Of a DNA stretch of 64,000 nucleotides, positions 18,437 to 60,024 are shown piece by piece; position 1 is the first letter of the stretch, and every line of letters begins with the position of its first letter. The DNA lies in the NCBI RefSeq assembly GCF_055900595.2, contig NZ_CM148325.1; one strand, given 5' to 3'. A model generated the notes under the pieces. It did no database searches and was not told the DNA's origin. It saw only the letters and a list, made by a program, of their open reading frames with translations. Position numbers and translations under genes: made by a program.

Positions 18437-19954
18437 ATGTCTGAACAAGAAACACGGGGAGCCAATGAGGCTATTGATTTTAACGATGAACTGAGAAATC
18501 GCCGCGAAAAACTGGCGGCACTGCGTCAGCAAGGTGTGGCGTTTCCTAATGATTTTCGCCGCGACCATACCTCTGACCAGTTGCACGAAGAGTTTGATGC
18601 GAAGGATAACCAGGAACTGGAATCCTTAAACATTGAAGTCTCGGTTGCTGGCCGAATGATGACCCGTCGTATCATGGGGAAAGCCTCCTTTGTAACGTTG
18701 CAGGATGTCGGTGGCCGTATTCAACTGTACGTTGCAAGAGATAGCCTGCCAGAAGGTGTTTATAATGATCAGTTTAAAAAATGGGACCTCGGCGACATTA
18801 TCGGTGCCCGCGGTACGCTGTTTAAGACGCAAACTGGTGAGCTTTCCATTCACTGTACTGAGTTACGCCTGCTGACTAAGGCACTGCGTCCATTGCCGGA
18901 TAAATTCCATGGCTTACAGGATCAGGAAGTCCGTTATCGTCAACGTTATCTGGACCTCATCGCTAACGATAAATCCCGTCAAACGTTTGTTGTCCGTTCA
19001 AAAATTCTGGCCGCTATCCGTCAGTTCATGGTCGCTCGCGGTTTTATGGAAGTAGAAACCCCAATGATGCAGGTAATTCCAGGTGGGGCATCTGCTCGCC
19101 CGTTTATTACCCATCATAACGCTCTGGATTTAGATATGTACCTGCGTATCGCGCCGGAGCTGTATCTGAAACGTCTGGTTGTAGGCGGTTTTGAACGGGT
19201 ATTCGAAATCAACCGTAACTTCCGTAATGAAGGTATTTCTGTTCGCCATAATCCTGAGTTCACAATGATGGAACTCTACATGGCATATGCGGATTACCAT
19301 GATTTGATTGAACTGACGGAGTCACTGTTCCGCACCCTGGCACAAGAGGTACTGGGTACCACTAAAGTCACTTATGGCGAGCATGTGTTTGATTTCGGCA
19401 AACCGTTTGAAAAACTCACCATGCGCGAAGCAATCAAAAAATATCGTCCAGAAACCGATATGGCGGATCTGGATAATTTTGATGCTGCTAAAGCATTAGC
19501 TGAATCTATCGGAATTACGGTAGAGAAAAGCTGGGGGCTGGGACGCATTGTCACGGAGATCTTTGATGAAGTGGCAGAAGCACATCTGATTCAGCCAACC
19601 TTTATCACGGAATATCCGGCAGAAGTGTCACCGCTGGCGCGCCGTAATGATGTTAACCCGGAAATCACCGACCGTTTTGAATTCTTCATCGGTGGTCGTG
19701 AAATCGGTAATGGTTTTAGCGAATTAAACGACGCAGAAGATCAGGCGGAACGTTTCCAGGAACAGGTTAACGCTAAAGCTGCAGGTGACGACGAAGCCAT
19801 GTTCTATGACGAAGATTACGTGACTGCGCTGGAATATGGTCTGCCGCCAACCGCGGGTCTGGGTATTGGTATCGACCGAATGATTATGCTGTTTACTAAC
19901 AGCCATACTATTCGCGACGTTATTCTCTTCCCGGCGATGCGTCCACAGAAATAA
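18437..19954 (+). CDS. lysU: Lysine--tRNA ligase, heat-inducible
   Basis: 505-aa frame from ATG 18437 ([33 protein letters not shown]...); lysU rather than lysS inferred from cad/dtpC context. Confidence 0.9.
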
Positions 19955-44777: not shown

Positions 44778-45113
44778 ATGTCATTACCACACTGCCCAAA
44801 ATGCAACTCCGAATACACCTACGAAGATAACGGCATGTACATCTGCCCGGAATGTGCCTACGAATGGAACGACGCAGAACCTGCACAGGAAAGCGACGAG
44901 CTGATCGTTAAAGATGCTAACGGCAATCTTCTGGCTGATGGCGACAGCGTTACCATCATTAAAGATCTGAAGGTGAAAGGTAGCTCTTCGATGCTGAAGA
45001 TCGGTACCAAAGTGAAAAACATTCGCCTGGTTGAAGGCGACCACAACATCGATTGCAAAATCGACGGTTTTGGTCCGATGAAACTGAAATCTGAGTTTGT
45101 GAAAAAGAACTGA
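44778..45113 (+). CDS. phnA: Zinc-ribbon protein PhnA
   Basis: 111-aa frame from ATG 44778 ([30 protein letters not shown]...). Confidence 0.85.
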
Positions 45114-45139
45114 TTGTATTGCTCAATGTAATATTGGCA

Positions 45140-45300
45140 CATGATCGGTAGGCCGGATAAGGCGCTCGCGCCGCATCCGGCTACGGTGCCGACTGCCTGA
45201 TGCGACGCTCGCGCGTCTTATCAGGCCTACAAATTCTCGCACCATCCGGCAACGGTGCCTAATGCGACGCTTACCGAGTCTTATCAGCCCCCGCTTATCT
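45140..45300. repeat. REP/BIME cluster (about three REP palindromes)
   Basis: GCCGGATAAGGCGCTCGCGCCGCATCCGGC and GCCTGATGCGACGCTCGCGCGTCTTATCAGGCC-type palindromes between phnA and phnB. Confidence 0.7.
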
Positions 45301-45352
45301 GTATAATTTTCGAACTACACTTAACTGGCTTCTCTTAACTGAGGTCACCATC

Positions 45353-45796
45353 ATGCCGTTAAGTCCCTACCTCTCTTTTGCTGGTAACTGTTCCGATGCG
45401 ATTGCCTATTATCAACGCACGTTGGGCGCGGAACTGCTTTATAAAATCAGCTTCGGCGAAATGCCGAAATCAGCGCAGGACAGCGCCGAGAACTGCCCTT
45501 CCGGTATGCAATTTCCCGATACCGCTATCGCCCATGCTAACGTGCGTATTGCCGGAAGCGATATCATGATGAGCGATGCCATACCGTCAGGAAAAGCCAG
45601 CTACTCCGGTTTTACACTGGTACTCGATTCGCAACAGGTCGAAGAAGGAAAACGCTGGTTTGATAACCTTGCTGCTAACGGAAAAATCGAAATGGCCTGG
45701 CAGGAAACTTTCTGGGCGCATGGCTTCGGCAAAGTCACCGATAAATTTGGCGTACCGTGGATGATTAATGTCGTCAAACAACAACCAACGCACTAA
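45353..45796 (+). CDS. phnB: PhnB (glyoxalase-fold protein)
   Basis: 147-aa ORF MPLSPYLSFAGNCSDAIAYYQRTLGAELLYKISFGEMPK... Confidence 0.85.
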   Translation: MPLSPYLSFAGNCSDAIAYYQRTLGAELLYKISFGEMPKSAQDSAENCPSGMQFPDTAIAHANVRIAGSDIMMSDAIPSGKASYSGFTLVLDSQQVEEGKRWFDNLAANGKIEMAWQETFWAHGFGKVTDKFGVPWMINVVKQQPTH

Positions 45797-45851
45797 CCCG
45801 CCGGGAGGCCCGCCCTCCCGCACTGTCATCGAATTCCCGTTAACTCTTCAT

Positions 45852-45873
45852 CTGTTAGTCACTTTTAGTTAAC
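45852..45873 (+). promoter_or_regulatory. Putative Pho box upstream of phnC
   Basis: CTGTTAGTCACTTTTAGTTAAC resembles PhoB-box half-sites (CTGTCAT-like repeats); a second CTGTCAT at about 45823. Confidence 0.4.
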
Positions 45874-45928
45874 AAAATCGTCACGATAATCCGCCACGAT
45901 GGAGCCACTTTTTTAGGGAGGCTGCATC

Positions 45929-46717
45929 ATGCAAACGATTATCCGTGTCGAGAAGCTCGCCAAAACCTTCAATCAGCATCAGGCGCTGCATGCGGTTGAT
46001 CTGAACATTCATCACGGTGAAATGGTGGCTCTGCTTGGGCCGTCCGGTTCCGGCAAATCCACCCTTTTACGTCATTTAAGCGGTTTGATTACCGGCGATA
46101 AATCTGCCGGTAGCCATATCGAGCTGCTGGGCCGCACAGTCCAGCGCGAAGGCCGCCTGGCCCGCGATATCCGCAAAAGCCGCGCCAACACCGGCTACAT
46201 CTTCCAACAATTCAACCTGGTGAATCGCCTGAGCGTACTGGAGAACGTGCTGATTGGCGCGCTCGGCAGCACGCCATTCTGGCGCACCTGTTTTAGCTAC
46301 TTCACCCGCGAGCAGAAACAGCGCGCGTTACAGGCGCTGACCCGCGTTGGCATGGTGCACTTTGCCCATCAGCGCGTTTCCACCCTCTCCGGCGGACAGC
46401 AGCAGCGTGTGGCGATTGCCCGTGCGCTGATGCAGCAGGCGAAGGTGATTCTGGCCGATGAACCGATCGCCTCGCTGGACCCGGAATCGGCCCGCATCGT
46501 GATGGATACCCTGCGCGACATCAACCAGAACGACGGCATCACCGTGGTGGTGACGCTGCATCAGGTGGATTACGCCCTGCGCTACTGCGAACGCATCGTC
46601 GCCCTGCGCCAGGGGCACGTCTTCTACGACGGCAGCAGCCAACAGTTTGATAACGAACGTTTTGACCATCTCTACCGCAGCATTAACCGCGTCGAAGAGA
46701 ACGCGAAAGCTGCCTGA
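45929..46717 (+). CDS. phnC: Phosphonate ABC transporter ATP-binding protein
   Basis: 262-aa ORF with Walker [10 protein letters not shown] and ABC signature LSGGQQQR. Confidence 0.9.
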
Positions 46718-46741
46718 CATCCCCATCATTGAGGAAAACGA

Positions 46742-47758
46742 ATGAACGCTAAGATAATTGCCTCGCTGGCCTTCACCAGCATGTTCAGCCTCAGCACCCT
46801 GTTAAGCCCGGCGCACGCCGAAGAGCAGGAAAAGGCGCTGAATTTCGGCATTATTTCAACGGAATCACAGCAAAACCTGAAACCGCAATGGACGCCGTTC
46901 TTACAGGATATGGAGAAGAAGCTGGGCGTAAAGGTCAACGCCTTCTTTGCCCCGGACTACGCGGGCATTATCCAGGGGATGCGCTTCAACAAAGTGGACA
47001 TCGCCTGGTACGGCAATCTGTCGGCGATGGAAGCGGTGGATCGCGCCAACGGTCAGGTCTTCGCCCAGACGGTCGCGGCGGATGGATCGCCGGGTTACTG
47101 GAGCGTGTTGATCGTCAACAAAGACAGTCCGATCAACAACCTGAACGATCTGCTGGCAAAGCGTAAAGATCTCACCTTCGGCAATGGCGATCCTAACTCC
47201 ACCTCTGGCTTCCTCGTCCCCGGCTACTACGTCTTCGCCAAAAACAATATCTCCGCCAGCGACTTCAAGCGCACCGTCAACGCCGGGCATGAAACCAACG
47301 CGCTGGCCGTCGCCAACAAGCAGGTGGATGTGGCGACCAACAACACCGAGAACCTCGACAAGCTGAAAACCTCCGCACCGGAGAAGCTCAAAGAACTGAA
47401 GGTGATCTGGAAATCGCCGCTGATCCCAGGCGATCCGATCGTCTGGCGCAAAAATCTTTCCGAAACCACCAAAGACAAGATCTACGACTTCTTTATGAAC
47501 TACGGCAAAACGCCGGAAGAGAAAGCGGTGCTGGAGCGCCTGGGCTGGGCCCCGTTCCGCGCCTCCAGCGACCTGCAACTGGTGCCGATTCGCCAGCTCG
47601 CGCTGTTTAAAGAGATGCAGGGCGTGAAAGGCAATAAAGGGCTGAATGAGCAGGACAAGCTGGCAAAAACCAGCGCCATTCAGGCGCAACTGGATGACCT
47701 GGACCGCCTGAACAACGCGTTAAGCGCGATGAGTTCGGTGAGTAAAGCGGTGCAGTAA
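46742..47758 (+). CDS. phnD: Phosphonate ABC transporter periplasmic binding protein
   Basis: 338-aa ORF with N-terminal signal peptide. Confidence 0.9.
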   Translation: MNAKIIASLAFTSMFSLSTLLSPAHAEEQEKALNFGIISTESQQNLKPQWTPFLQDMEKKLGVKVNAFFAPDYAGIIQGMRFNKVDIAWYGNLSAMEAVDRANGQVFAQTVAADGSPGYWSVLIVNKDSPINNLNDLLAKRKDLTFGNGDPNSTSGFLVPGYYVFAKNNISASDFKRTVNAGHETNALAVANKQVDVATNNTENLDKLKTSAPEKLKELKVIWKSPLIPGDPIVWRKNLSETTKDKIYDFFMNYGKTPEEKAVLERLGWAPFRASSDLQLVPIRQLALFKEMQGVKGNKGLNEQDKLAKTSAIQAQLDDLDRLNNALSAMSSVSKAVQ

Positions 47759-47764
47759 TGTGCT

Positions 47765-47875
47765 CGATCGGTCCCCTCTCCCTTGAGGGAGAGGGTTAGG
47801 GTGAGGAAGAAATGCGCACGCTGGTGCCCTCACCCCGGCCCTCTCCCACAGGGAGAGGGAGAAAACATTAAACGG
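47765..47875. repeat. GC-rich palindromic intergenic repeat pair (boxC-like)
   Basis: Two inverted copies built on CCCTCTCCC...GGGAGAGGG and GGGTGAGGG/CCCTCACCCC cores between phnD and phnE; same element recurs at 53110-53240. Confidence 0.6.
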
Positions 47876-47883
47876 AGCCAAAC

Positions 47884-48663
47884 ATGCAAACCATCACCAT
47901 TGCCCCACCCAAGCGCAGCTGGTTCTCGATCTTCAGCTGGGCCATTGTTCTCGCCGTACTGGTCGTCTCGTGGCAGGGCGCGGAAATGGCCCCGCTCACG
48001 CTGATTAAAGACGGCGGCAACATGGCGACGTTCGCCGCCGACTTCTTCCCGCCCGATTTCAGCCAGTGGCAGGATTACCTCACCGAAATGGCCGTCACGC
48101 TGCAAATCGCCGTCTGGGGCACCGCGCTGGCAGTCGTTCTCTCCATCCCCTTCGGCCTGATGAGCGCCGAAAACCTGGTGCCGTGGTGGGTTTACCAGCC
48201 CGTTCGCCGCCTGATGGACGCCTGCCGCGCCATTAACGAGATGGTCTTCGCCATGCTGTTCGTGGTCGCCGTCGGTCTCGGTCCGTTCGCTGGCGTACTG
48301 GCGCTGTTTATCCACACCACCGGCGTGCTCTCCAAACTGCTTTCCGAAGCGGTAGAAGCAATTGAACCCGGCCCGGTGGAAGGCATTCGCGCCACCGGTG
48401 CCAACAAGCTCGAAGAGATCCTCTATGGCGTGCTGCCGCAGGTGATGCCGCTGCTAATCTCCTACTCCCTCTATCGCTTCGAATCCAACGTCCGCTCGGC
48501 CACCGTTGTTGGCATGGTCGGCGCTGGCGGGATCGGCGTCACGCTGTGGGAAGCGATTCGCGGTTTCCAGTTCCAGCAAACCTGTGCCCTGATGGTGCTG
48601 ATTATCGTCACGGTCAGCCTGCTGGATTTCCTCTCTCAACGGTTGCGTAAGCACTTTATCTGA
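47884..48663 (+). CDS. phnE: Phosphonate ABC transporter permease (intact)
   Basis: 259-aa uninterrupted membrane ORF. Confidence 0.85.
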
Positions 48664-48683
48664 TAAGCGAGGCATTAATATCT

Positions 48684-49409
48684 ATGCACTTGTCTACACA
48701 TCCGACCAGCTACCCAACACGCTATCAGGAGATAGCCGCAAAACTTGAGCAGGAGCTTCGTCAACACTACCGCTGCGGCGACTATCTTCCCGCCGAGCAG
48801 CAACTGGCAGCGCGCTTTGAGGTGAATCGCCACACCCTGCGCCGTGCCATCGACCAACTGGTGGAAAAAGGCTGGGTACAGCGCCGTCAGGGCGTCGGCG
48901 TGCTGGTGCTGATGCGCCCGTTCGATTACCCGCTCAACGCCCAGGCGCGTTTTAGCCAGAACCTGCTGGATCAGGGTAGCCATCCCACCAGCGAAAAACT
49001 GCTGTCCGTGCTGCGCCCGGCCTCCGGTCACGTCGCTGACGCGCTGGGGATAACCGAGGGCGAGAACGTTATCCACCTGCGCACCCTGCGCCGGGTCAAC
49101 GGCGTCGCACTCTGTTTAATCGACCACTACTTTGCGGACCTCACTCTCTGGCCGACGCTGCAACGCTTCGACAGCGGCTCGCTGCACGATTTTTTGCACG
49201 AGCAAACGGGGATTGCGCTGCGCCGCAGCCAGACGCGGATCAGCGCCCGCCGCGCCCAGGCCAAAGAGTGCCAGCGTCTTGAAATCCCGAATATGTCGCC
49301 GCTGCTGTGCGTGCGCACCCTTAACCACCGTGACGGTGAAAGCAGCCCGGCGGAGTACTCCGTCAGCCTGACGCGCGCCGACATGATTGAATTCACTATG
49401 GAGCACTGA
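48684..49409 (+). CDS. phnF: GntR-family repressor of the phn operon
   Basis: 241-aa ORF with N-terminal HTH region. Confidence 0.85.
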   Translation: MHLSTHPTSYPTRYQEIAAKLEQELRQHYRCGDYLPAEQQLAARFEVNRHTLRRAIDQLVEKGWVQRRQGVGVLVLMRPFDYPLNAQARFSQNLLDQGSHPTSEKLLSVLRPASGHVADALGITEGENVIHLRTLRRVNGVALCLIDHYFADLTLWPTLQRFDSGSLHDFLHEQTGIALRRSQTRISARRAQAKECQRLEIPNMSPLLCVRTLNHRDGESSPAEYSVSLTRADMIEFTMEH

Positions 49410-49862
49410 ATGCACGCAGATACCGCGACCCGCCAGCACTGGATGTCCGTGCTGGCGCACAGCCAACCGGCTGAACTGGCTAACCGCCTTAAAGCGCTAA
49501 ACATCACCGCCGACTATGACATTATCCGCGCCGCCGAAACCGGCCTGGTACAGATTCAGGCGCGGATGGGTGGCACCGGCGAACGCTTTTTTGCCGGCGA
49601 CGCCACGCTCACCCGCGCCGCCATACGCCTGACTGACGGCACGCTCGGCTACAGCTGGGTGCTGGGGCGCGACAAACAGCACGCCGAACGCTGCGCGCTG
49701 ATTGACGCGCTGATGCAGCAATCTCGCCACTTTCAAAACTTATCAGAAACCCTTATTGCCCCGCTGGACGCTGACCGTATGGCACGCATTGCCGCACGCC
49801 AGGCCGAAGTGAACGCCAGTCGGGTCGACTTCTTTACGATGGTTCGCGGAGACAACGCATGA
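49410..49862 (+). CDS. phnG: C-P lyase core complex subunit PhnG
   Basis: 150-aa ORF; operon order. Confidence 0.85.
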
Positions 49863-50443
49863 CCCTGGAAACCGCTTTTATGCTTCCCGTGCAGGATGCC
49901 CAGCACAGTTTTCGTCGCCTGTTAAAGGCCATGAGCGAGCCGGGCGTGATTGTCGCCCTACATCAACTCAAACGCGGCTGGCAGCCGCTGAATATTGCCT
50001 CTACCAGCGTATTGCTGACGCTGGCTGATAACGACACGCCGGTGTGGCTTTCCGCGCCATTAAGTAACGATATCGTCAGCCAGAGCCTGCGTTTTCATAC
50101 CAACGCCCCGCTGGTCAATCAGCCGGAACAGGCGACCTTCGCAGTGACGGATGAGGCGATTGCCAGCGAGCAGCTCAACGCCCTTTCCACCGGCACCGCC
50201 GTTGCGCCGGAAGCCGGTGCGACGTTGATTTTACAGGTCACCAGCCTGAGCGGCGGACGCATGCTGCGCCTCACCGGCGCGGGTATTGCCGAAGAACGGA
50301 TGATCGCCCCGCAACTGCCGGAGTGCATTCTGCACGAACTCACCGAGCGCCCGCACCCGTTCCCGCTCGGCATCGACCTGATCCTGACCTGCGGCGAGCG
50401 CCTGCTGGCTATTCCGCGAACCACTCATGTGGAGGTGTGCTGA
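49859..50443 (+). CDS. phnH: C-P lyase core complex subunit PhnH
   Basis: 194-aa ORF; translationally coupled to neighbours. Confidence 0.85.
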
Positions 50444-51507
50444 TGTACGTTGCCGTGAAAGGGGGCGAGAAGGCGATCGACGCCGCCCACGCCCTGCAAG
50501 AGAGCCGACGCCGGGGCGATACCGATTTGCCTGAACTGAGCGTCGCCCAGATTGAACAGCAGCTTAATCTCGCGGTGGATCGCGTGATGACCGAAGGCGG
50601 CATTGCCGACCGCGAACTGGCCGCACTGGCGCTGAAACAGGCCAGTGGCGATAACGTTGAAGCAATTTTCCTGCTGCGCGCCTACCGCACGACGCTGGCA
50701 AAACTGGCGGTGAGCGAACCGCTCGACACCACCGAGATGCGTCTCGAACGCCGTATCTCCGCCGTTTATAAAGACATTCCTGGCGGCCAGTTGCTTGGCC
50801 CGACCTACGACTACACCCATCGCCTGCTCGATTTCACCCTGCTGGCGAATGGCGAAGCGCCGACGCTGACCACCGCCGACAGCGAGCAAGCCCCATCACC
50901 GCACGTTTTCAGCCTGCTGGCGCGTCAGGGGCTGGCGAAGTTTGAAGAGGATAGCGGCACACAGCCGGATGACATCACCCGCACGCCGCCGGTTTACCCC
51001 TGCTCACGCTCCTCCCGCCTGCAGCAGCTCATGCGCGGAGACGAAGGCTATTTGCTGGCGCTGGCCTACTCCACCCAGCGTGGTTACGGACGCAATCACC
51101 CGTTCGCAGGCGAAATCCGCAGTGGCTATATCGACGTGTCTATTGTGCCGGAAGAGCTGGGATTTGCGGTGAACATCGGCGAACTGCTGATGACCGAGTG
51201 TGAAATGGTCAACGGTTTTATCGACCCGCCGGATGAGCCGCCGCACTTCACGCGCGGCTACGGGCTGGTGTTCGGCATGAGCGAGCGCAAAGCGATGGCA
51301 ATGGCGCTGGTTGACCGTGCGTTGCAGGCTCCGGAGTACGGCGAGCACGCGACAGGCCCGGCGCAGGATGAAGAGTTCGTGCTGGCGCATGCCGACAACG
51401 TCGAAGCCGCAGGCTTTGTCTCGCACCTCAAACTCCCGCACTACGTCGATTTCCAGGCCGAGCTGGAGCTACTCAAACGTCTGCAACAGGAGCAGAACCA
51501 TGGCTAA
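50443..51507 (+). CDS. phnI: C-P lyase core complex subunit PhnI
   Basis: Frame from ATG 50443 ([27 protein letters not shown]...), 354 aa. Confidence 0.85.
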   Translation: MYVAVKGGEKAIDAAHALQESRRRGDTDLPELSVAQIEQQLNLAVDRVMTEGGIADRELAALALKQASGDNVEAIFLLRAYRTTLAKLAVSEPLDTTEMRLERRISAVYKDIPGGQLLGPTYDYTHRLLDFTLLANGEAPTLTTADSEQAPSPHVFSLLARQGLAKFEEDSGTQPDDITRTPPVYPCSRSSRLQQLMRGDEGYLLALAYSTQRGYGRNHPFAGEIRSGYIDVSIVPEELGFAVNIGELLMTECEMVNGFIDPPDEPPHFTRGYGLVFGMSERKAMAMALVDRALQAPEYGEHATGPAQDEEFVLAHADNVEAAGFVSHLKLPHYVDFQAELELLKRLQQEQNHG

Positions 51508-52345
51508 TCTGAGCGGCTACAACTTTGCCTACCTCGACGAGCAGACCAAACGCATGATCCGCCGCGCCATCTTAAAAGCGGTGGCGATCCCCGGCTATCA
51601 GGTGCCGTTTGGCGGGCGCGAGATGCCGATGCCATACGGCTGGGGAACCGGCGGCATACAGCTTACCGCCAGCGTGATTGGCGAAAGCGACGTGTTGAAG
51701 GTGATTGACCAGGGCGCGGATGACACCACCAACGCCGTATCAATTCGCAACTTTTTCAAGCGCGTGACCGGGGTAAACACCACTGAACGTACGGACGATG
51801 CGACGCTTATCCAGACGCGCCACCGCATCCCCGAAACGCCGCTGACCGAAGATCAGATCATTATCTTCCAGGTGCCGATCCCGGAACCGCTGCGCTTTAT
51901 CGAGCCGCGCGAAACGGAGACCCGCACCATGCACGCGCTGGAGGAGTACGGCGTGATGCAGGTGAAACTATATGAAGATATCGCCCGCTTCGGTCATATC
52001 GCCACCACTTATGCCTATCCGGTGAAGGTGAACGGGCGCTACGTCATGGACCCATCGCCGATCCCGAAATTCGATAACCCGAAAATGGACATGATGCCCG
52101 CCCTGCAACTGTTTGGCGCGGGGCGCGAGAAGCGTATTTATGCGGTGCCGCCGTTTACCCGCGTGGAAAGCCTCGATTTTGACGATCACCCGTTCACCGT
52201 TCAGCAGTGGGATGAACCCTGCGCGATTTGCGGATCAACCCACAGCTATCTCGATGAAGTGGTGCTGGATGACGCCGGAAACCGCATGTTTGTCTGCTCC
52301 GATACCGATTATTGCCGCCAACAGAGCGAGGCGAAAAGCCAATGA
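51500..52345 (+). CDS. phnJ: C-P lyase (radical SAM-like) PhnJ
   Basis: Frame from ATG 51500 (MANLSGYNFAYLDEQTKRMIRRAILKAVAIPGYQVPFGGREMPMPYGWGTGG...), 281 aa, C-terminal Cys cluster CAICGS...C. Confidence 0.85.
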   Translation: MANLSGYNFAYLDEQTKRMIRRAILKAVAIPGYQVPFGGREMPMPYGWGTGGIQLTASVIGESDVLKVIDQGADDTTNAVSIRNFFKRVTGVNTTERTDDATLIQTRHRIPETPLTEDQIIIFQVPIPEPLRFIEPRETETRTMHALEEYGVMQVKLYEDIARFGHIATTYAYPVKVNGRYVMDPSPIPKFDNPKMDMMPALQLFGAGREKRIYAVPPFTRVESLDFDDHPFTVQQWDEPCAICGSTHSYLDEVVLDDAGNRMFVCSDTDYCRQQSEAKSQ

Positions 52346-53100
52346 ATCAACCGTTACTTTCGGTCAATAACCTGACCCACCTTTACGCGCCGGGCAAAGG
52401 CTTCAGCGATGTCTCTTTTGATTTATGGCCGGGGGAAGTGCTGGGCATTGTCGGGGAATCCGGTTCCGGGAAGACCACGCTGCTGAAATCAATCTCCGCC
52501 CGTCTGACGCCGCAACAGGGGGAGATTCACTATGAAAACCGTTCCCTCTATGGCATGAGCGAGGCCGACCGCCGTCGCCTGCTGCGCACCGAATGGGGCG
52601 TGGTGCATCAGCATCCGCTCGACGGCCTGCGCCGCCAGGTCTCGGCAGGCGGCAATATCGGCGAACGGCTGATGGCGACCGGGGCGCGTCATTACGGCGA
52701 CATTCGCGCCACCGCGCAGAAGTGGCTGGAAGAGGTGGAGATTCCCGCCAACCGTATCGACGACCTGCCGACCACTTTTTCCGGCGGTATGCAGCAGCGT
52801 TTGCAGATTGCCCGCAACCTGGTGACGCATCCGAAGCTGGTGTTTATGGATGAACCGACCGGCGGGCTGGATGTATCGGTACAGGCGCGCCTGCTCGACC
52901 TGCTGCGCGGCCTGGTGGTGGAACTGAACCTGGCGGTGGTGATTGTCACCCATGATTTAGGCGTCGCCCGCCTGCTGGCGGACCGTTTGCTGGTGATGAA
53001 GCAGGGGCAGGTGGTGGAGAGTGGGTTAACCGACCGCGTGCTCGACGACCCGCATCACCCGTATACCCAGTTGCTGGTGTCATCGGTTTTGCAGAATTGA
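52342..53100 (+). CDS. phnK: C-P lyase system ATP-binding protein PhnK
   Basis: Frame from ATG 52342 (MNQPLLSVNNLTHLYAPGKGF...), Walker A GESGSGKTT. Confidence 0.85.
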   Translation: MNQPLLSVNNLTHLYAPGKGFSDVSFDLWPGEVLGIVGESGSGKTTLLKSISARLTPQQGEIHYENRSLYGMSEADRRRLLRTEWGVVHQHPLDGLRRQVSAGGNIGERLMATGARHYGDIRATAQKWLEEVEIPANRIDDLPTTFSGGMQQRLQIARNLVTHPKLVFMDEPTGGLDVSVQARLLDLLRGLVVELNLAVVIVTHDLGVARLLADRLLVMKQGQVVESGLTDRVLDDPHHPYTQLLVSSVLQN

Positions 53101-53109
53101 ATGCAACAC

Positions 53110-53240
53110 CGTGCGCGCTGATCCCCTCACCCCGGCCCTCTCCCGGAGGGAGAGGGAGAAAACCGGCGCAATATTCAACACCGCGCACAATCGGTCCCCT
53201 CGCCCCTTCGGGGAGAGGGTTAGGGTGAGGGGCAATGCGC
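53110..53240. repeat. GC-rich palindromic intergenic repeat pair (boxC-like), second site
   Basis: CCCTCACCCCGGCCCTCTCCCGGAGGGAGAGGGAGAA and GGTCCCCTCGCCCCTTCGGGGAGAGGGTTAGGGTGAGGG between phnK and phnL. Confidence 0.6.
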
Positions 53241-53276
53241 GCACCGCTCCCCAATATGCGAACCACGAGGCGAAAA

Positions 53277-53957
53277 ATGATTAACGTACAAAACGTCAGT
53301 AAAACCTTCATCCTGCACCAGCAAAACGGCGTGCGCCTGCCCGTCTTACAACGCGCCTCGCTCACCGTCAACGCGGGCGAATGCGTGGTGCTCCACGGTC
53401 ACTCCGGCAGCGGCAAATCGACCCTGCTACGTTCGCTGTACGCCAACTATCTGCCCGACGAAGGGCAAATCCAGATTAAACACGGTGACGAATGGATAGA
53501 CCTGGTCACCGCCCCAGCGCGCAAAGTGGTGGAAATCCGCAAAACCACTGTCGGCTGGGTAAGTCAGTTTCTGCGCGTCATCCCGCGTATTTCGGCACTG
53601 GAAGTGGTGATGCAGCCGCTGCTCGATACCGGCGTTCCGCGTGAAGCCTGCGCCGCTAAAGCCGCCCGATTACTGACGCGCCTGAACGTGCCTGAACGCC
53701 TGTGGCACCTGGCACCATCGACCTTCTCCGGCGGCGAACAGCAGCGCGTCAACATCGCCCGTGGCTTTATCGTCGACTATCCGATTCTGCTGCTGGATGA
53801 ACCCACCGCCTCGCTGGACGCCAAAAACAGCGCCGCCGTAGTGGAACTGATCTGCGAAGCCAAAGCCCGCGGCGCGGCCATCGTCGGTATCTTCCATGAC
53901 GAAGCCGTACGCAATGACGTCGCCGACCGCCTGCACCCAATGGGAGTCTCTTCATGA
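53277..53957 (+). CDS. phnL: C-P lyase system ATP-binding protein PhnL
   Basis: Frame from ATG 53277 ([24 protein letters not shown]...), Walker [10 protein letters not shown]. Confidence 0.85.
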
Positions 53958-55090
53958 TTATCAATAACGTCAAACTGGTGCTGGAAAATGAAGTGGTGCA
54001 CGGTTCACTGGAAGTACAGGATGGCGAAATTCGCGCCTTTGCCGAAAGCCAGAGCCGCCTGCCAGAGGCGATGGACGGCGAAGGCGGCTGGCTGCTGCCG
54101 GGGCTGATTGAGCTGCATACCGACAACCTCGATAAATTCTTCACTCCGCGCCCAAAAGTGGACTGGCCTGCCCACTCGGCGATGAGCAGCCACGACGCGC
54201 TGATGGTGGCGAGCGGCATCACCACCGTACTGGATGCCGTGGCGATTGGCGACGTGCGCGACGGCGGCGATCGGCTGGAGAATCTGGAGAAGATGATCAA
54301 CGCCATCGAAGAGACGCAGAAACGCGGCGTCAACCGCGCCGAGCACCGTCTGCACCTGCGCTGTGAACTGCCACATCACACCACGCTGCCGCTGTTTGAA
54401 AAACTGGTGCAGCGCGAGCCGGTAACGCTGGTGTCGCTAATGGACCACTCGCCGGGCCAGCGCCAGTTCGCCAATCGCGAGAAGTATCGCGAATATTATC
54501 AGGGCAAATACTCGCTCACCGATGCGCAGATGCAGCTGTACGAAGAGGAACAGCTGGCGCTTGCCGCACGCTGGTCGCAGCCGAATCGCGAAACCATCGC
54601 CGCAATGTGCCGCGCGCGACAAATTGCCCTCGCCAGCCACGATGACGCCACGCACGCGCACGTTGCCGAATCCCACCAGCTTGGCAGCGTAATCGCCGAA
54701 TTTCCCACCACGTTCGAAGCGGCGGAAGCTTCGCGCAAGCATGGCATGAATGTATTGATGGGCGCGCCGAATATTGTGCGCGGCGGTTCGCACTCCGGCA
54801 ACGTGGCGGCCAGTGAACTGGCACAGCTTGGTCTGCTGGATATCCTCTCTTCCGACTACTACCCCGCCAGCCTGCTCGATGCGGCATTTCGCGTCGCCGA
54901 TGACGAGAGCAACCGCTTTACGCTGCCGCAGGCGGTGAAGCTGGTGACTAAAAATCCGGCGCAGGCGCTGAATCTTCAGGATCGCGGGGTGATTGGCGAG
55001 GGCAAACGCGCCGACCTGGTGCTGGCGCATCGCAAGGGTAATCACATTCATATCGACCACGTCTGGCGTCAGGGGAAAAGGGTGTTTTGA
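53954..55090 (+). CDS. phnM: PhnM (amidohydrolase-family, alpha-D-ribose 1-methylphosphonate 5-triphosphate diphosphatase)
   Basis: 378-aa ORF; operon order. Confidence 0.85.
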
Positions 55091-55647
55091 TGATGGGAAA
55101 ACTGGTTTGGTTGATGGGGCCGTCCGGCTCCGGGAAAGATAGCCTGCTGGCGGAGCTCCGCCTGCGGGAACAAGCTCAGTTACTGGTGGCGCATCGCTAC
55201 ATCACGCGCGATGCCAGCGCCGGAAGCGAAAATCATATCGCCCTGAGTGAGCAGGAGTTTTTTGCCCGCGCGGGGCAGCAACTCTTCGCATTAAGCTGGC
55301 ATGCTAATAGCTACTATTACGGTGCCGGGCTGGAAATTGACCTCTGGCTGCACGCCGGATTCGACGTGGTGGTCAACGGTTCACGCGCCCATCTGCCGCA
55401 GGCGCGGGCGCGCTATCAATCGGCGCTGCTGCCCATCTGTTTACAGGTTTCGCCAGAGATCCTGCGCCAGCGCCTGGAAAACCGTGGACGGGAAAACGCG
55501 ACAGAAATTAACGCCCGACTCGCACGCGCCGCCCGCTATACTCCTCAGGATTGCCATACGCTCAACAATGACGGCAGCCTGCGCCAGTCGGTCGACACGC
55601 TGCTGACGCTGATCCATCAGAAGGAGAAACACCATGCCTGCTTGTGA
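55090..55647 (+). CDS. phnN: Ribose 1,5-bisphosphate phosphokinase PhnN
   Basis: Frame from ATG 55090 ([20 protein letters not shown]...), P-loop present. Confidence 0.85.
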
Positions 55648-56068
55648 GCTTCGCCCGGCCACGCAGTACGATACCGACGCGGTTTACGCGCTGATTTGCG
55701 AGCTAAAACAGGCGGAGTTTGACCACCACGCGTTTCGCGTGGGGTTTAACGCCAATCTGCGCGACCCGAACATGCGCTACCATCTGGCGCTGCTGGATGG
55801 CGAAGTTGTCGGCATGATCGGCCTGCATTTGCAGTTTCATCTGCATCATGTCAACTGGATCGGCGAAATTCAGGAACTGGTGGTGATGCCGCAGGCACGT
55901 GGTTTGAACGTGGGTAGCAAATTGCTGGCATGGGCGGAAAAAGAAGCTCGCCAGGCCGGGGCCGAAATGACCGAGCTTTCCACCAACGTCAAGCGCCACG
56001 ACGCGCACCGTTTCTATCTGCGCGAAGGCTACGAGCAGAGCCACTTCCGCTTCACCAAGGCGCTGTAA
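55634..56068 (+). CDS. phnO: Aminoalkylphosphonate N-acetyltransferase PhnO
   Basis: 144-aa GNAT-like ORF. Confidence 0.85.
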
Positions 56069-56069
56069 C

Positions 56070-56828
56070 ATGAGCCTGACCCTCACACTTACTGGCACTG
56101 GCGGCGCACAGGGTGTTCCCGCATGGGGCTGTGAGTGCGCGGCCTGCGCCAGAGCGCGGCGCTCACCGCAGTATCGCCGCCAGCCATGCAGCGGCGTCGT
56201 GAAGTTTAACGACGCGATCACCCTGATCGACGCCGGGCTGCACGGTCTCGCCGATCGCTGGTCGCCCGGATCGTTCCAGCAGTTTTTGCTGACACACTAC
56301 CATATGGATCACGTGCAGGGGCTGTTTCCGCTGCGCTGGGGCGTGGGCGATTCGATCCCGGTCTACGGCCCGCCGGATGAACAGGGCTGCGACGATCTGT
56401 TTAAACATCCGGGCCTGCTTGATTTCAGCCACACGGTGGAGCCATTTGTGATGTTTGATTTGCAGGGATTACAGGTCACGCCGCTGCCGCTCAACCATTC
56501 GAAACTCACTTTCGGCTATCTACTGGAAACGGCACATAGCCGGGTGGCGTGGCTGTCTGACACCGCAGGCCTGCCGGAAAAAACGGTGAAATTTTTACGC
56601 AATAATCAGCCGCAGGTGATGGTGATTGATTGCAGTCACCCACCGCGCGCGAATTCGCCACGCAATCACTGTGATTTAAACACCGTGCTGGCGCTGAATG
56701 AAGTTATCCGCTCGCCGCGCGTGGTTCTGACACATATCAGCCATCAGCTTGATGTGTGGCTGATGGAGAACGTACTGCCGTCAGGGTTTGAGGCGGGGTT
56801 TGATGGGATGGAGATTGGGGTGGAGTGA
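56070..56828 (+). CDS. phnP: Phosphodiesterase PhnP (metallo-beta-lactamase fold)
   Basis: 252-aa ORF with HxHxDH motif ([10 protein letters not shown]). Confidence 0.85.
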
Positions 56829-56862
56829 TGGGTGAGGGGCGATGCCTGCTCTAAACTCAACA

Positions 56863-57192
56863 TCACCGCCCATACTCATCTTCCATTCTCCGCTCTTCAT
56901 CTTCTAGCTGCCGACGCTCCTGATCCAGCTGGCGCTGGCGATCGTCCAGCTGCCTGCGGCGATCTTCAAACTGGCGGCGGCGATCGTCATATTGTCTGCG
57001 CCGATCGTCGTTCACTTCACGCTGCCAGCCGTCGTCGCGCGAATCTTCATAGTCTCGCCCACGGTCAGGGTTATAAGCATCGTTAATCGCCTGCTGAATA
57101 TTACCAATGGTGTCGTCGATAATATCGGCCTGGGCCGGAACGGTGGACAGCGTGAGCAGGGTGAATAAAAGAAATAGCGGAAAACGTTTCAT
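56863..57192 (-). CDS. yjdP: Small secreted Arg/Asp-rich protein YjdP
   Basis: 109-aa ORF with signal peptide and RRQ/DDR repeats. Confidence 0.75.
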   Translation of the reverse strand: MKRFPLFLLFTLLTLSTVPAQADIIDDTIGNIQQAINDAYNPDRGRDYEDSRDDGWQREVNDDRRRQYDDRRRQFEDRRRQLDDRQRQLDQERRQLEDEERRMEDEYGR

Positions 57193-57260
57193 TAGCCAAC
57201 CTCAAAAAGAAACTCTATCCACATTAGTCATTACTCATCCATGCAAGTAGTGGATGAATC

Positions 57261-57578
57261 TCAATTTTTCCGCTGCTCTATTGCCGTAATCGCCTCCACA
57301 CGTTGTTGATGACGACCGCCTTCGTACTGCGCGCCCAGCCACGCATCCACAATCATTTTTGCCAGTTCGAGGCCAACCACTCGTGAACCAAAAGCCAGTG
57401 CAACTTCACTGGCGTAATGCGGATAATCAGTGCGCTCTGACGACCTGGTTTCTTTATCAATCCCCTCACTCATTGACCATGAATAAAAGGCTGGCACAGC
57501 AACGCAGAATCCTGCGGTGCCAGCGACATGACCGCCCATTGCTCCGGTACGTTTTTTAATAAGAAACACCGGTTGCAT
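57261..57578 (-). pseudogene. rpiB: rpiB remnant (ribose-5-phosphate isomerase B with internal deletion)
   Basis: 105-aa ORF contains SSERTDYPHYAS and C-terminal FGSRVVGLELAKMIVDAWLGAQYEGGRHQQRVEAITAIEQR matching RpiB, but lacks about 50 central residues. Confidence 0.7.
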
Positions 57579-57830
57579 TGATTAATTGTGCTCAGTATTT
57601 GCCGAAGTACAATATATATAATAAATATATAAAACACCTCATATTATTTACAGAGATAATAAATTCGCATACTTTTCCCTCTTCAGCACAAATGCCTAAT
57701 AAAATGGCTCGTTCCGCTCACACTTCCACTTATTAAAATCGCAATTTCCCAATTATGATAACGCCAGCTTTAAATGACGTATTTTGCATGGATTACATAT
57801 TTACGACACAAATGATAAATGGAGATTTAT

Positions 57831-59816
57831 ATGAATAACTCTCGGTTATTCCGTTTGAGCAGGATTGTTATTGCGTTAACTGCCGCCAGCGGCATGATGG
57901 TAAATACCGCTCACGCAACAGATGAAGCGAAAGCCGCCACTCAATATACCCAACAGGTTAATCAGAATTACGCCAAATCATTACCGTTTAGCGATCGTCA
58001 GGATTTTGACGATGCCCAGCGCGGATTTATCGCCCCGCTGCTGGATGAAGGTATTCTGCGCGATGCGAATGGCAAAGTTTACTACCGCGCGGATGATTAC
58101 AAATTTGATATTAATGCCGCTGCGCCGGAAACCGTAAACCCCAGCCTGTGGCGTCAGTCGCAGATCAACGGCATTTCTGGCCTGTTCAAAGTCACCGATA
58201 AAATGTATCAGGTGCGCGGCCAGGATATCTCTAACATTACATTCGTTGAGGGCGAGAAAGGCATTATTGTTATCGACCCACTGGTGACACCGCCTGCCGC
58301 AAAAGCCGCACTTGACCTTTACTTCCAGCATCGTCCGCAAAAACCGATTGTTGCTGTTATTTACACCCACAGCCACGCCGACCATTATGGCGGTGTGAAA
58401 GGCATTATCTCTGAAGCGGATGTTAAATCTGGCAAAGTGCAGGTGATCGCTCCGGCAGGCTTTATGGACGAAGCCATCAGCGAAAACGTGCTGGCGGGTA
58501 ACATCATGAGCCGCCGTGCGCTCTACTCTTACGGTCTGTTACTGCCGCACAACGCGCAAGGCAACGTGGGCAACGGCCTGGGCGTGACGCTGGCAACGGG
58601 CGATCCGAGCATTATTGCGCCAACCAAAACGATTGTCAGAACTGGCGAGAAGATGGTTATCGACGGTCTGGAGTTTGACTTTCTGATGACTCCGGGTAGC
58701 GAAGCGCCAGCCGAAATGCACTTCTATATTCCGGCCCTGAAAGCCCTGTGTACCGCCGAAAACGCCACGCATACCCTGCACAACTTCTACACCCTGCGCG
58801 GCGCGAAAACCCGCGATACCAGCAAGTGGACAGCGTATCTGAACGAAACGCTGGATATGTGGGGTAACGACGCGGAAGTACTGTTTATGCCGCACACCTG
58901 GCCGGTCTGGGGCAATAAGCATATCAATGATTATATTGGTAAATATCGCGATACTATCAAATACATTCACGACCAGCCCCTGCACCTGGCGAACCAGGGT
59001 TACACCATGAATGAAATCGGCGACATGATTAAGCTGCCACCTGCGCTTGCCAATAACTGGGCCAGCCGCGGCTATTACGGTTCTGTTAGCCACAACGCCC
59101 GTGCAGTGTATAACTTCTATCTCGGCTATTATGACGGCAATCCAGCTAACCTACATCCGTACGGTCAGGTGGAGATGGGCAAACGTTACGTGAAAGCGCT
59201 GGGCGGTTCCGCCCGTGTCATCAACCTGGCGCAAGAAGCGAACAAGCAAGGGGATTACCGCTGGTCAGCAGAGTTGCTGAAACAATTGATTGCCGCCAAT
59301 CCGGGTGACCAGGTGGCGAAGAATCTGCAAGCAAATAACTTTGAACAGTTGGGTTATCAGGCCGAGTCCGCCACCTGGCGCGGTTTCTACCTGACCGGCG
59401 CAAAAGAGCTGCGCGAAGGGGTGCATAAGTTCAGCCACGGCACCACCGGTTCTCCGGACACCCTTCGCGGGATGTCGGTCGAAATGCTGTTCGACTTTAT
59501 GGCCGTTCGCCTCGATAGCGCGAAAGCCGCAGGTAAGAATATCAGCCTGAACTTCAATATGAGCAACGGCGATAACCTCAACCTGACGCTGAACGATAGC
59601 GTGCTTAACTACCGTAAAACGCTGCAACCTGAAGCCAACGCCTCTTTCTACATCAGCCGTGAAGATCTTCACGCCGTGCTGACCGGACAAGCCAAAATAG
59701 CGGATCTGGTAAAAGTGAAGAAAGCCAAAATTATTGGCAATGGCGCGAAACTGGAAGAAATTATTGCCTGTCTGGATAATTTCGATTTGTGGGTGAATAT
59801 CGTAACCCCAAATTAA
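57831..59816 (+). CDS. yjcS: Putative alkyl/aryl-sulfatase YjcS (metallo-beta-lactamase fold)
   Basis: 661-aa frame from ATG 57831 ([29 protein letters not shown]...) with signal peptide and [10 protein letters not shown] motif. Confidence 0.85.
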
Positions 59817-59824
59817 TGCCACTC

Positions 59825-59862
59825 ACTTTTGGGGGCGCTTAAGCCCCCAAAAGTATTTATTT
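59825..59862 (+). terminator. Rho-independent terminator downstream of yjcS
   Basis: TTTTGGGGGCGCTTAAGCCCCCAAAAG hairpin followed by T-rich tract. Confidence 0.65.
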
Positions 59863-60024
59863 TAAAAATACATACAACCAATTAATACATAAAATATATA
59901 AGTTATGAATGCGGTGGCTGAATAAAGCTATTTTTATTCATCGAGAAAATAGCCATACTGACGCCTTCAATGGATATTGATATTCACTACAGATATTGTT
60001 CGCAGCAGACAGGATGTATTTAAT

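Follow-up and report, generated by a model that had tools for sequence, protein, structure and literature searches.

A very probable scar of the D-allose regulon, left by two deletions between yjdP and yjcS of Escherichia coli

Introduction

What lies between yjdP and yjcS in strains of Escherichia coli whose D-allose genes are missing from that site, and how did it come to be there? In K-12 the interval holds the D-allose regulon, rpiB-alsR(rpiR)-alsBACEK (Kim, Song & Park 1997 and Poulsen et al. 1999, as cited in PMC2808357 and PMC3032704). The als genes are absent from E. coli W, a strain of phylogroup B1 that does not use allose (PMC3032704). They are likewise absent from EAEC 042, for which the inability to use allose and a 'complete absence' of the genes, including rpiB, were reported (PMC2808357).

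Here we consider a stretch of 64,000 nucleotides of E. coli chromosome (contig NZ_CM148325.1 of RefSeq assembly GCF_055900595.2), called the window throughout, whose numbering is used for all coordinates unless another locus is named. The original prediction for this DNA, made from its letters alone, was that the allose operon is missing between yjdP and yjcS and that an internally deleted rpiB with a divergent N-terminus remains as a deletion scar. The operon would have been lost in this lineage or, alternatively, gained at this site by K-12. We conclude that the region is very probably a non-functional scar of the D-allose regulon rpiB-alsR-alsBACEK, left by two deletions and going back to one old event. 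The finding is an ordinary one and already known in kind, being a refinement of a known strain polymorphism; we found no published description of the two-deletion anatomy or of a site with three states.

Results

Organization of the interval

In this E. coli chromosome the genes run in the order phnM-phnP, yjdP, a short ORF, yjcS, ytcA and mdtN. The left flank common to all alleles is yjdP (56863-57192, minus strand), an ORF for a DDRRRQL-repeat protein that is annotated both in the closest genome and in K-12; the first 61 residues of its product are 98% identical to K-12 YjdP. A spacer of 68 bp (57193-57260, minus strand) separates yjdP from the gene upstream of it. On the right, the flank that als, scar and O157-type alleles have in common is the upstream region of yjcS (57607-57830, plus strand), with 94% identity to K-12 and 91% to O157. 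It leads into yjcS itself (57831-59816, plus strand), annotated as encoding an alkyl sulfatase, whose 661 residues show 97.9% amino acid identity to K-12 YjcS; starting at an alternative ATG upstream of it, at 57819, would lengthen the ORF slightly.

Between these flanks, K-12 (strain JM109, our locus L002) carries rpiB-alsR-alsB-alsA-alsC-alsE-alsK. The window has no alsR or alsBACEK there, just an ORF of 105 codons, as had been predicted. Elsewhere in its 64 kb no als genes were detected, and tblastn with the K-12 Als proteins returned generic ABC-ATPase similarity in the phn genes. From 45000 to 60000 (phn to yjcS), the window is 91-97% identical per kilobase to K-12, O157:H7 and 042. The closest complete E. 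coli genome reaches at most 98.4% over 24 kb, and the scar region alone is 99.6% identical to that of RMDEC465. The phn-yjcS region has the look of a recombinogenic mosaic; the lineage from which the window comes appears to be sparsely covered by complete genomes.

Anatomy of the scar

The interval was dissected by BLAST and by ungapped alignment against K-12. Positions 56830-57398 correspond to K-12 sequence from yjdP through the 68-bp spacer into the final 43 codons of rpiB, with 96.7% identity overall. Within this stretch, the 3′ end of rpiB, which encodes RpiB residues 107-149 and the stop (57261-57398, minus strand), differs from K-12 by 3 mismatches in 138 bases (97.8% identity). It ends at the junction of a 159-bp deletion, marked by a direct repeat of six bases (57393-57398) that reads AGCCAG, or CTGGCT in the coding direction, and the same hexamer is found at both of the corresponding breakpoints in K-12. 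The deletion is in frame and removes RpiB residues 54-106, including Cys66 and His99; where the prediction had about 50 central residues missing, the alignment to K-12 gives exactly 53.

Beyond this junction lies an internal piece of rpiB, codons 29-53 (57399-57468, minus strand), which contains SSERTDYPHYAS and whose translation includes SSERTDYPHY. The match to RpiB that had been claimed for the C-terminus of the ORF and around SSERTDYPHYAS therefore holds, since both segments align to K-12 rpiB. The internal piece is 88.8% identical to K-12 and carries the non-conservative changes V30G, G34E and W36R. Three of its differences from K-12 are the state found in outgroup rpiB, and the others are unique and non-synonymous.

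The next 8 bp (CTCATTGA; 57469-57476) are assignable to neither side in ungapped alignments to both K-12 flanks and mark the junction of the larger deletion, of about 6.5 kb. This deletion runs from about codon 28 of rpiB to the last codon of alsK and amounts to a net 6549 bp relative to K-12. On the far side of this deletion (57477-57528, plus strand) are the last sense codon and the stop of alsK (CCA TGA, the stop at 57480-57482) and the hairpin downstream of them, together 78.8% identical to positions 19356-19407 of the K-12 locus. The hairpin (57489-57525; 19368-19403 in K-12) has been kept though alsK is lost. One U-A pair has become C-G by compensatory change and the inner stem has been rebuilt; the folding z-score of the hairpin is -3.2 in the window and about -3 in K-12 too. 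The 78 bp that follow (57529-57606), up to the yjcS upstream region, are specific to the scar when delimited by BLAST against K-12; given the flank of the als allele of SCPM-O-B-8794, the segment shrinks to about 75 bp (57532-57606). No IS element, terminal repeats or target-site duplication was found at the junctions, and no IS-like ORFs in the interval.

Set against the K-12 regulon, then, the window has the same site, two homologous pieces of RpiB and the homologous alsK stop and hairpin. It is without alsR, alsB, alsA, alsC, alsE, alsK and RpiB residues 1-28 and 54-106, about 6.7 kb in total.

Coding capacity of the remnant ORF

The ORF that spans these pieces (57261-57578, minus strand; 105 codons) is annotated in RefSeq as a CDS for an 'RpiB/LacA/LacB family sugar-phosphate isomerase'. 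It is chimeric: its residues 63-105 are RpiB 107-149, its residues 38-62 are RpiB 29-53, and its residues 1-37 are the antisense of the DNA downstream of alsK together with about 50 bp of the scar-specific segment. What had been taken for a divergent N-terminus is thus not diverged RpiB at all, and consists of unrelated DNA read in frame. The ATG (57576-57578) is supplied by the scar-specific segment and has a stop codon just 5′ of it.

That the remnant descends from rpiB is established by significant similarity to RpiB in Pfam, PDB and DNA comparisons. The Pfam profile LacAB_rpiB (PF02502) matches the remnant over positions 102-138 of 138 (E = 7.5e-12), compared with 1-138 for K-12 RpiB, and the solved E. 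coli enzyme (PDB 1NN4) aligns to it in two separate stretches (E = 7.8e-33). In RpiB, Cys66 is the catalytic base, and an H99N mutant suffers a 26-fold loss in kcat (PMC4783025). The remnant has neither the full PF02502 domain nor Cys66, Thr68, His99 or Asp9/His10; Thr68 and Cys66 fall in the deleted residues 54-106, and Asp9/His10 were in residues 1-28, gone with the 6.5-kb deletion. Because Asp9/His10, Cys66 and His99 are absent, the remnant is, to judge by its sequence, a pseudogene incapable of isomerase activity.

The rpiB-alsR intergenic region, with the rpiB promoter, is deleted, and no Shine-Dalgarno-like sequence precedes the remnant ATG (minus strand ...CACAATTAATCA ATG). A consensus promoter scan of both strands of the interval gave zero matches and likewise missed the yjcS promoter, so it is uninformative.

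Might the 105-aa chimera nevertheless be alive, encoding a shortened derivative of RpiB that selection maintains for some new role outside catalysis? The ORF is intact and of equal length in the large majority of its carriers, the main cluster of 105-aa proteins having 912 member sequences; it is also intact in the 6 complete genomes sampled besides the window, among which RMDEC465 encodes a protein identical to that of the window, and PGAP annotates it as an ordinary CDS in many genomes. Across 7 intact alleles from diverse strains, the variable codons include 9 non-synonymous and 6 synonymous ones. The resulting ratio of about 0.47 (on 240 and 75 sites) comes from such small counts that it is indistinguishable from neutral, and it is compatible with weak constraint too.

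These observations are compatible with the absence of function. The scar alleles are just 1-2% apart, so that an intact ORF is expected without selection, and synonymous variation in the 3′ part can come from functional als+ alleles via recombination. The loss of the N-terminal part of the domain and of the active-site residues, the deleted rpiB promoter region, the missing ribosome-binding site before the ATG and the non-conservative W36R and G34E in the retained core all speak against a live gene, as do multiple independent frameshifts and further deletions. Versions that are frameshifted, shortened or further deleted occur in other genomes, for example in strain HH97, where PGAP calls the more damaged remnant a pseudogene. 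We consider a live gene very unlikely and keep to the reading of the ORF as a pseudogene. The RefSeq proteins WP_001183291.1, WP_001183290.1, WP_001183287.1 and WP_001183283.1, each of 105 aa, are the same ORF as the window remnant. Their name implies an enzyme, whereas the sequence covers no more than the final quarter of the domain and 25 internal residues. Pseudogene would be a better label, as a widely propagated enzyme name sits on a dead fragment.

Loss rather than gain

The original prediction offered loss in this lineage and gain in K-12 as alternatives. Loss is what we find; gain is contradicted by the evidence below, and so is the confinement to one lineage, given that 29% of complete E. 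coli genomes share the allele. The description of the region as a deletion scar is well founded, because the 3′ end of rpiB, the internal rpiB piece and the alsK stop with its hairpin are all retained. Fragments of both ends of the block thus stand in their original order, orientation and site.

Had K-12-type strains instead acquired als by insertion, the state seen in the window would be the ancestral empty site. Such a history has in its favour that the yjdP-yjcS site holds different cassettes in different strains, namely als, an O157-type island or neither. An empty insertion site cannot hold pieces of the insert, however, and the supposedly empty allele contains two stretches of rpiB, codons 29-53 and codons 107-149, as well as the stop and hairpin of alsK, none of which insertion could leave behind; the 97.8% identity over 138 bases of the rpiB 3′ end excludes chance similarity. 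The outgroups point the same way. In a survey anchored on YjdP, with one genome per species, the als operon adjoins yjdP in the same orientation in E. whittamii, in SCPM-O-B-8794 (our locus L009, from a divergent lineage of Escherichia whose record is filed under E. coli), in Citrobacter amalonaticus S646 and in C. koseri. As als neighbours yjdP in Citrobacter as well as in further Escherichia, its presence at the site predates E. coli, and the state of the window is a loss. An insertion into an ancestral empty site is almost certainly not what happened.

The history that we infer, including the order and mechanism of the deletions and the later spread by recombination, would be the following. 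In the ancestral allele the whole block from rpiB to alsK would have filled the space from yjdP to yjcS. One of the deletions, of about 6.5 kb, would have taken out the DNA from about codon 28 of rpiB through the last codon of alsK. The other, of 159 bp and in frame, would have had its endpoints in two copies of CTGGCT, with slippage or microhomology as the likeliest mechanism. The leftover RpiB segments 29-53 and 107-149 would thereby have been fused in frame to 37 non-RpiB codons with a chance ATG. Once formed, long ago and a single time, the allele would have spread from one E. coli phylogroup to others, presumably through homologous recombination in its flanks.

Identity to K-12 falls from about 98% in the rpiB 3′ piece to 89% in the internal piece and 79% in the piece after alsK. 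The latter two are much more diverged than the flanks, which suggests either that the progenitor als operon was not K-12-like or that these pieces have been shielded from recombination. The scar would be old under either reading. A counterpoint to simple deletion is the 78-bp scar-only segment, which is present in no sampled als allele.

Distribution in E. coli

When searched at a coverage of at least 80%, the scar region (1071 bp) is present in 1569 of 5426 complete E. coli genomes, or about 29%. The same 1569 genomes, and no als+ genome, contain a 142-bp stretch made up of the junction and the scar-only segment, in one place each. With 1569 complete genomes carrying it, the structure is no assembly artefact. 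The junctions are identical in O104:H4 C227-11, EAEC 042, RMDEC465, PKF11, E2863 and SW07096, which differ by about 1-2% across the scar. Identical junctions at so low a divergence indicate, as far as comparison of these alleles can tell, a single origin. The 318-bp remnant of 042 has the same junctions as that of the window and differs by about 2% across the scar; the paper on that strain (PMC2808357), which reports rpiB among the absent genes, leaves the remnant itself undescribed.

An intact als operon is carried by 3367 of the 5426 genomes, including K-12, ST131, SMS-3-5 and O121 RM8352. In the same collection the als query falls in 5413 places in 5407 records, from which it follows that als genes essentially never occur elsewhere in scar genomes. 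The O157-type island (coverage at least 80%) is present in 411 genomes, and about 79 genomes are left with other states. We take K-12 to belong to phylogroup A, ST131 to B2, SMS-3-5 to F, O121 RM8352 and O104:H4 to B1, and 042 to D. The alleles thus do not follow phylogroup boundaries, as recombining flanks would lead one to expect.

The site accordingly exists in three main states among the 5426 E. coli genomes, and als and O157-type cassettes alternate beside yjdP in Citrobacter too.

A 158-aa version of the remnant

The protein search also returned a version of 158 aa, which has the chimeric N-terminus and the 6.5-kb deletion and is without the 159-bp deletion. At least 8 ENA metagenome contigs, which differ in sample and assembler, contain it, and some of them span from ytcA/yjcS to the phn genes. 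It was found in 0 of the 5426 complete E. coli genomes, and its protein cluster holds no isolate-derived records. In every copy the als-like sequence gives way to scar-like sequence inside one shared 12-bp stretch, at CATTACGCCAGT followed by CAAGTCGCA (ERZ28598904, ERZ28657705 and ERZ507965). At the codon for residue 49, the 158-aa copies are K-12-like and the scar is outgroup-like. This allele could be the ancestral intermediate, a recombinant between a scar and an als+ allele, or an assembly chimera.

The scar-only segment

The 78-bp segment is confined to scar genomes and single-copy in each of them; it was found in no als+ allele among the 5426 E. coli genomes, nor in E. whittamii or SCPM-O-B-8794. 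Searches of the interval detected no RNA family (Rfam) and no repeat element.

Two candidate sources were tried and rejected. The start of the ORF, MQPVFLI, recalls the MKPVVLV of the O157-type response regulator, but in a local alignment of 57529-57578 the score was reached by 1121 of 2000 shuffles. The 3′ end of the histidine kinase, a gene that in C. koseri converges on alsK, gave scores no higher than the shuffle mean for C. koseri and for O157. A 17-nt match inside the kinase of Escherichia sp. E1V33 was reached by 3 of 1000 shuffles, but was one of six tests and was set aside.

The O157-type island and the left edge of the variable region

In O157:H7 (our locus L003, 10360-19650), an island of 9.3 kb fills the exact yjdP-yjcS interval, between the same flanks. 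Its genes encode a hybrid histidine kinase, a sugar ABC transporter, a D-lyxose/D-mannose isomerase, an aldolase, a kinase and a response regulator; the isomerase Z5688, a D-lyxose isomerase, is the protein of PDB 3KMH. Although interval and flanks are shared with the window, the gene content is unrelated, and the island is absent from the window. About a dozen species of the Citrobacter freundii complex also have this island beside yjdP, and so does Escherichia sp. E1V33.

C. koseri NCTC10786 (locus L026, 1-10000) has both cassettes in tandem, with yjdP, rpiB and als through alsK followed by a frameshifted hybrid histidine kinase and an ABC ATPase, the latter two converging on alsK. The ancestor of the single-cassette alleles may have looked like this tandem and given rise to them by deletion.

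Towards yjdP, the variable region has a sharp left edge, formed by a motif of about 20 bp, AGTAGnGGAkkAwTCTCAATT (57246-57266; TTGAGATTCmTCCrCTAC on the yjdP strand), which includes the stop of the remnant ORF. The motif is conserved in Escherichia and Citrobacter whichever gene lies upstream, be it rpiB, the histidine kinase or a 210-aa ORF, all of which end at the same TGA inside it. The motif lies partly in the spacer and partly in the adjoining end of the ORF, and the spacer to yjdP is 68 bp in both K-12 and O157. Since TTGAGA resembles a -35 box, the motif may be the promoter of yjdP.

Does the scar, then, descend from an ancestor that carried als and an O157-type cassette in tandem, both of them since lost, with the 78-bp segment as the last trace of the second cassette? 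In C. koseri, alsK is directly followed by the O157-type histidine kinase and ABC ATPase. Where the kinase lies directly beside yjdP, as in O157 and most sampled Citrobacter, it ends in the codons of rpiB from an asparagine to the stop and in the motif, as if fused there by deletion. The right 28 bp of the segment show a weak likeness to the DNA upstream of the O157 response regulator. This resemblance is marginal, its score being reached by 77 of 2000 shuffles, and the left 50 bp are similar to the kinase 3′ end and the regulator 5′ end at no more than chance level. The tandem arrangement, moreover, comes from one genome examined, that of C. koseri. We regard a tandem origin of the scar as rather doubtful. 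A broader proposal, to which we also give a small share of credence, is that yjdP-yjcS is an old cassette-exchange site, in which a tandem ancestor of Escherichia and Citrobacter gave rise to the three E. coli states by alternative deletions ending at the motif of about 20 bp. If it is true, the states would be a long-lived polymorphism, with a null scar allele at 29%.

Discussion

The practical consequence of a scar left by two deletions concerns phenotype and annotation. A strain with the scar allele should not grow on D-allose, and an allose-negative phenotype is what we would predict for the strain studied here. The allele is also a single-origin marker with a defined 142-bp junction, which can serve for typing E. 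coli lineages and for tracing recombination in the phn-yjcS region. Two sugar cassettes that alternate at one site in Escherichia and Citrobacter may interest those who study hotspots of gene gain and loss. Otherwise its importance extends little beyond bookkeeping.

The neighbourhood of yjdP holds one further variant: in some carriers of the O157-type island an extra ORF of 210 aa lies between the histidine kinase and yjdP, as in E1V33 (locus L016, 9300-9932), in C. youngae and in Citrobacter sp. R56.
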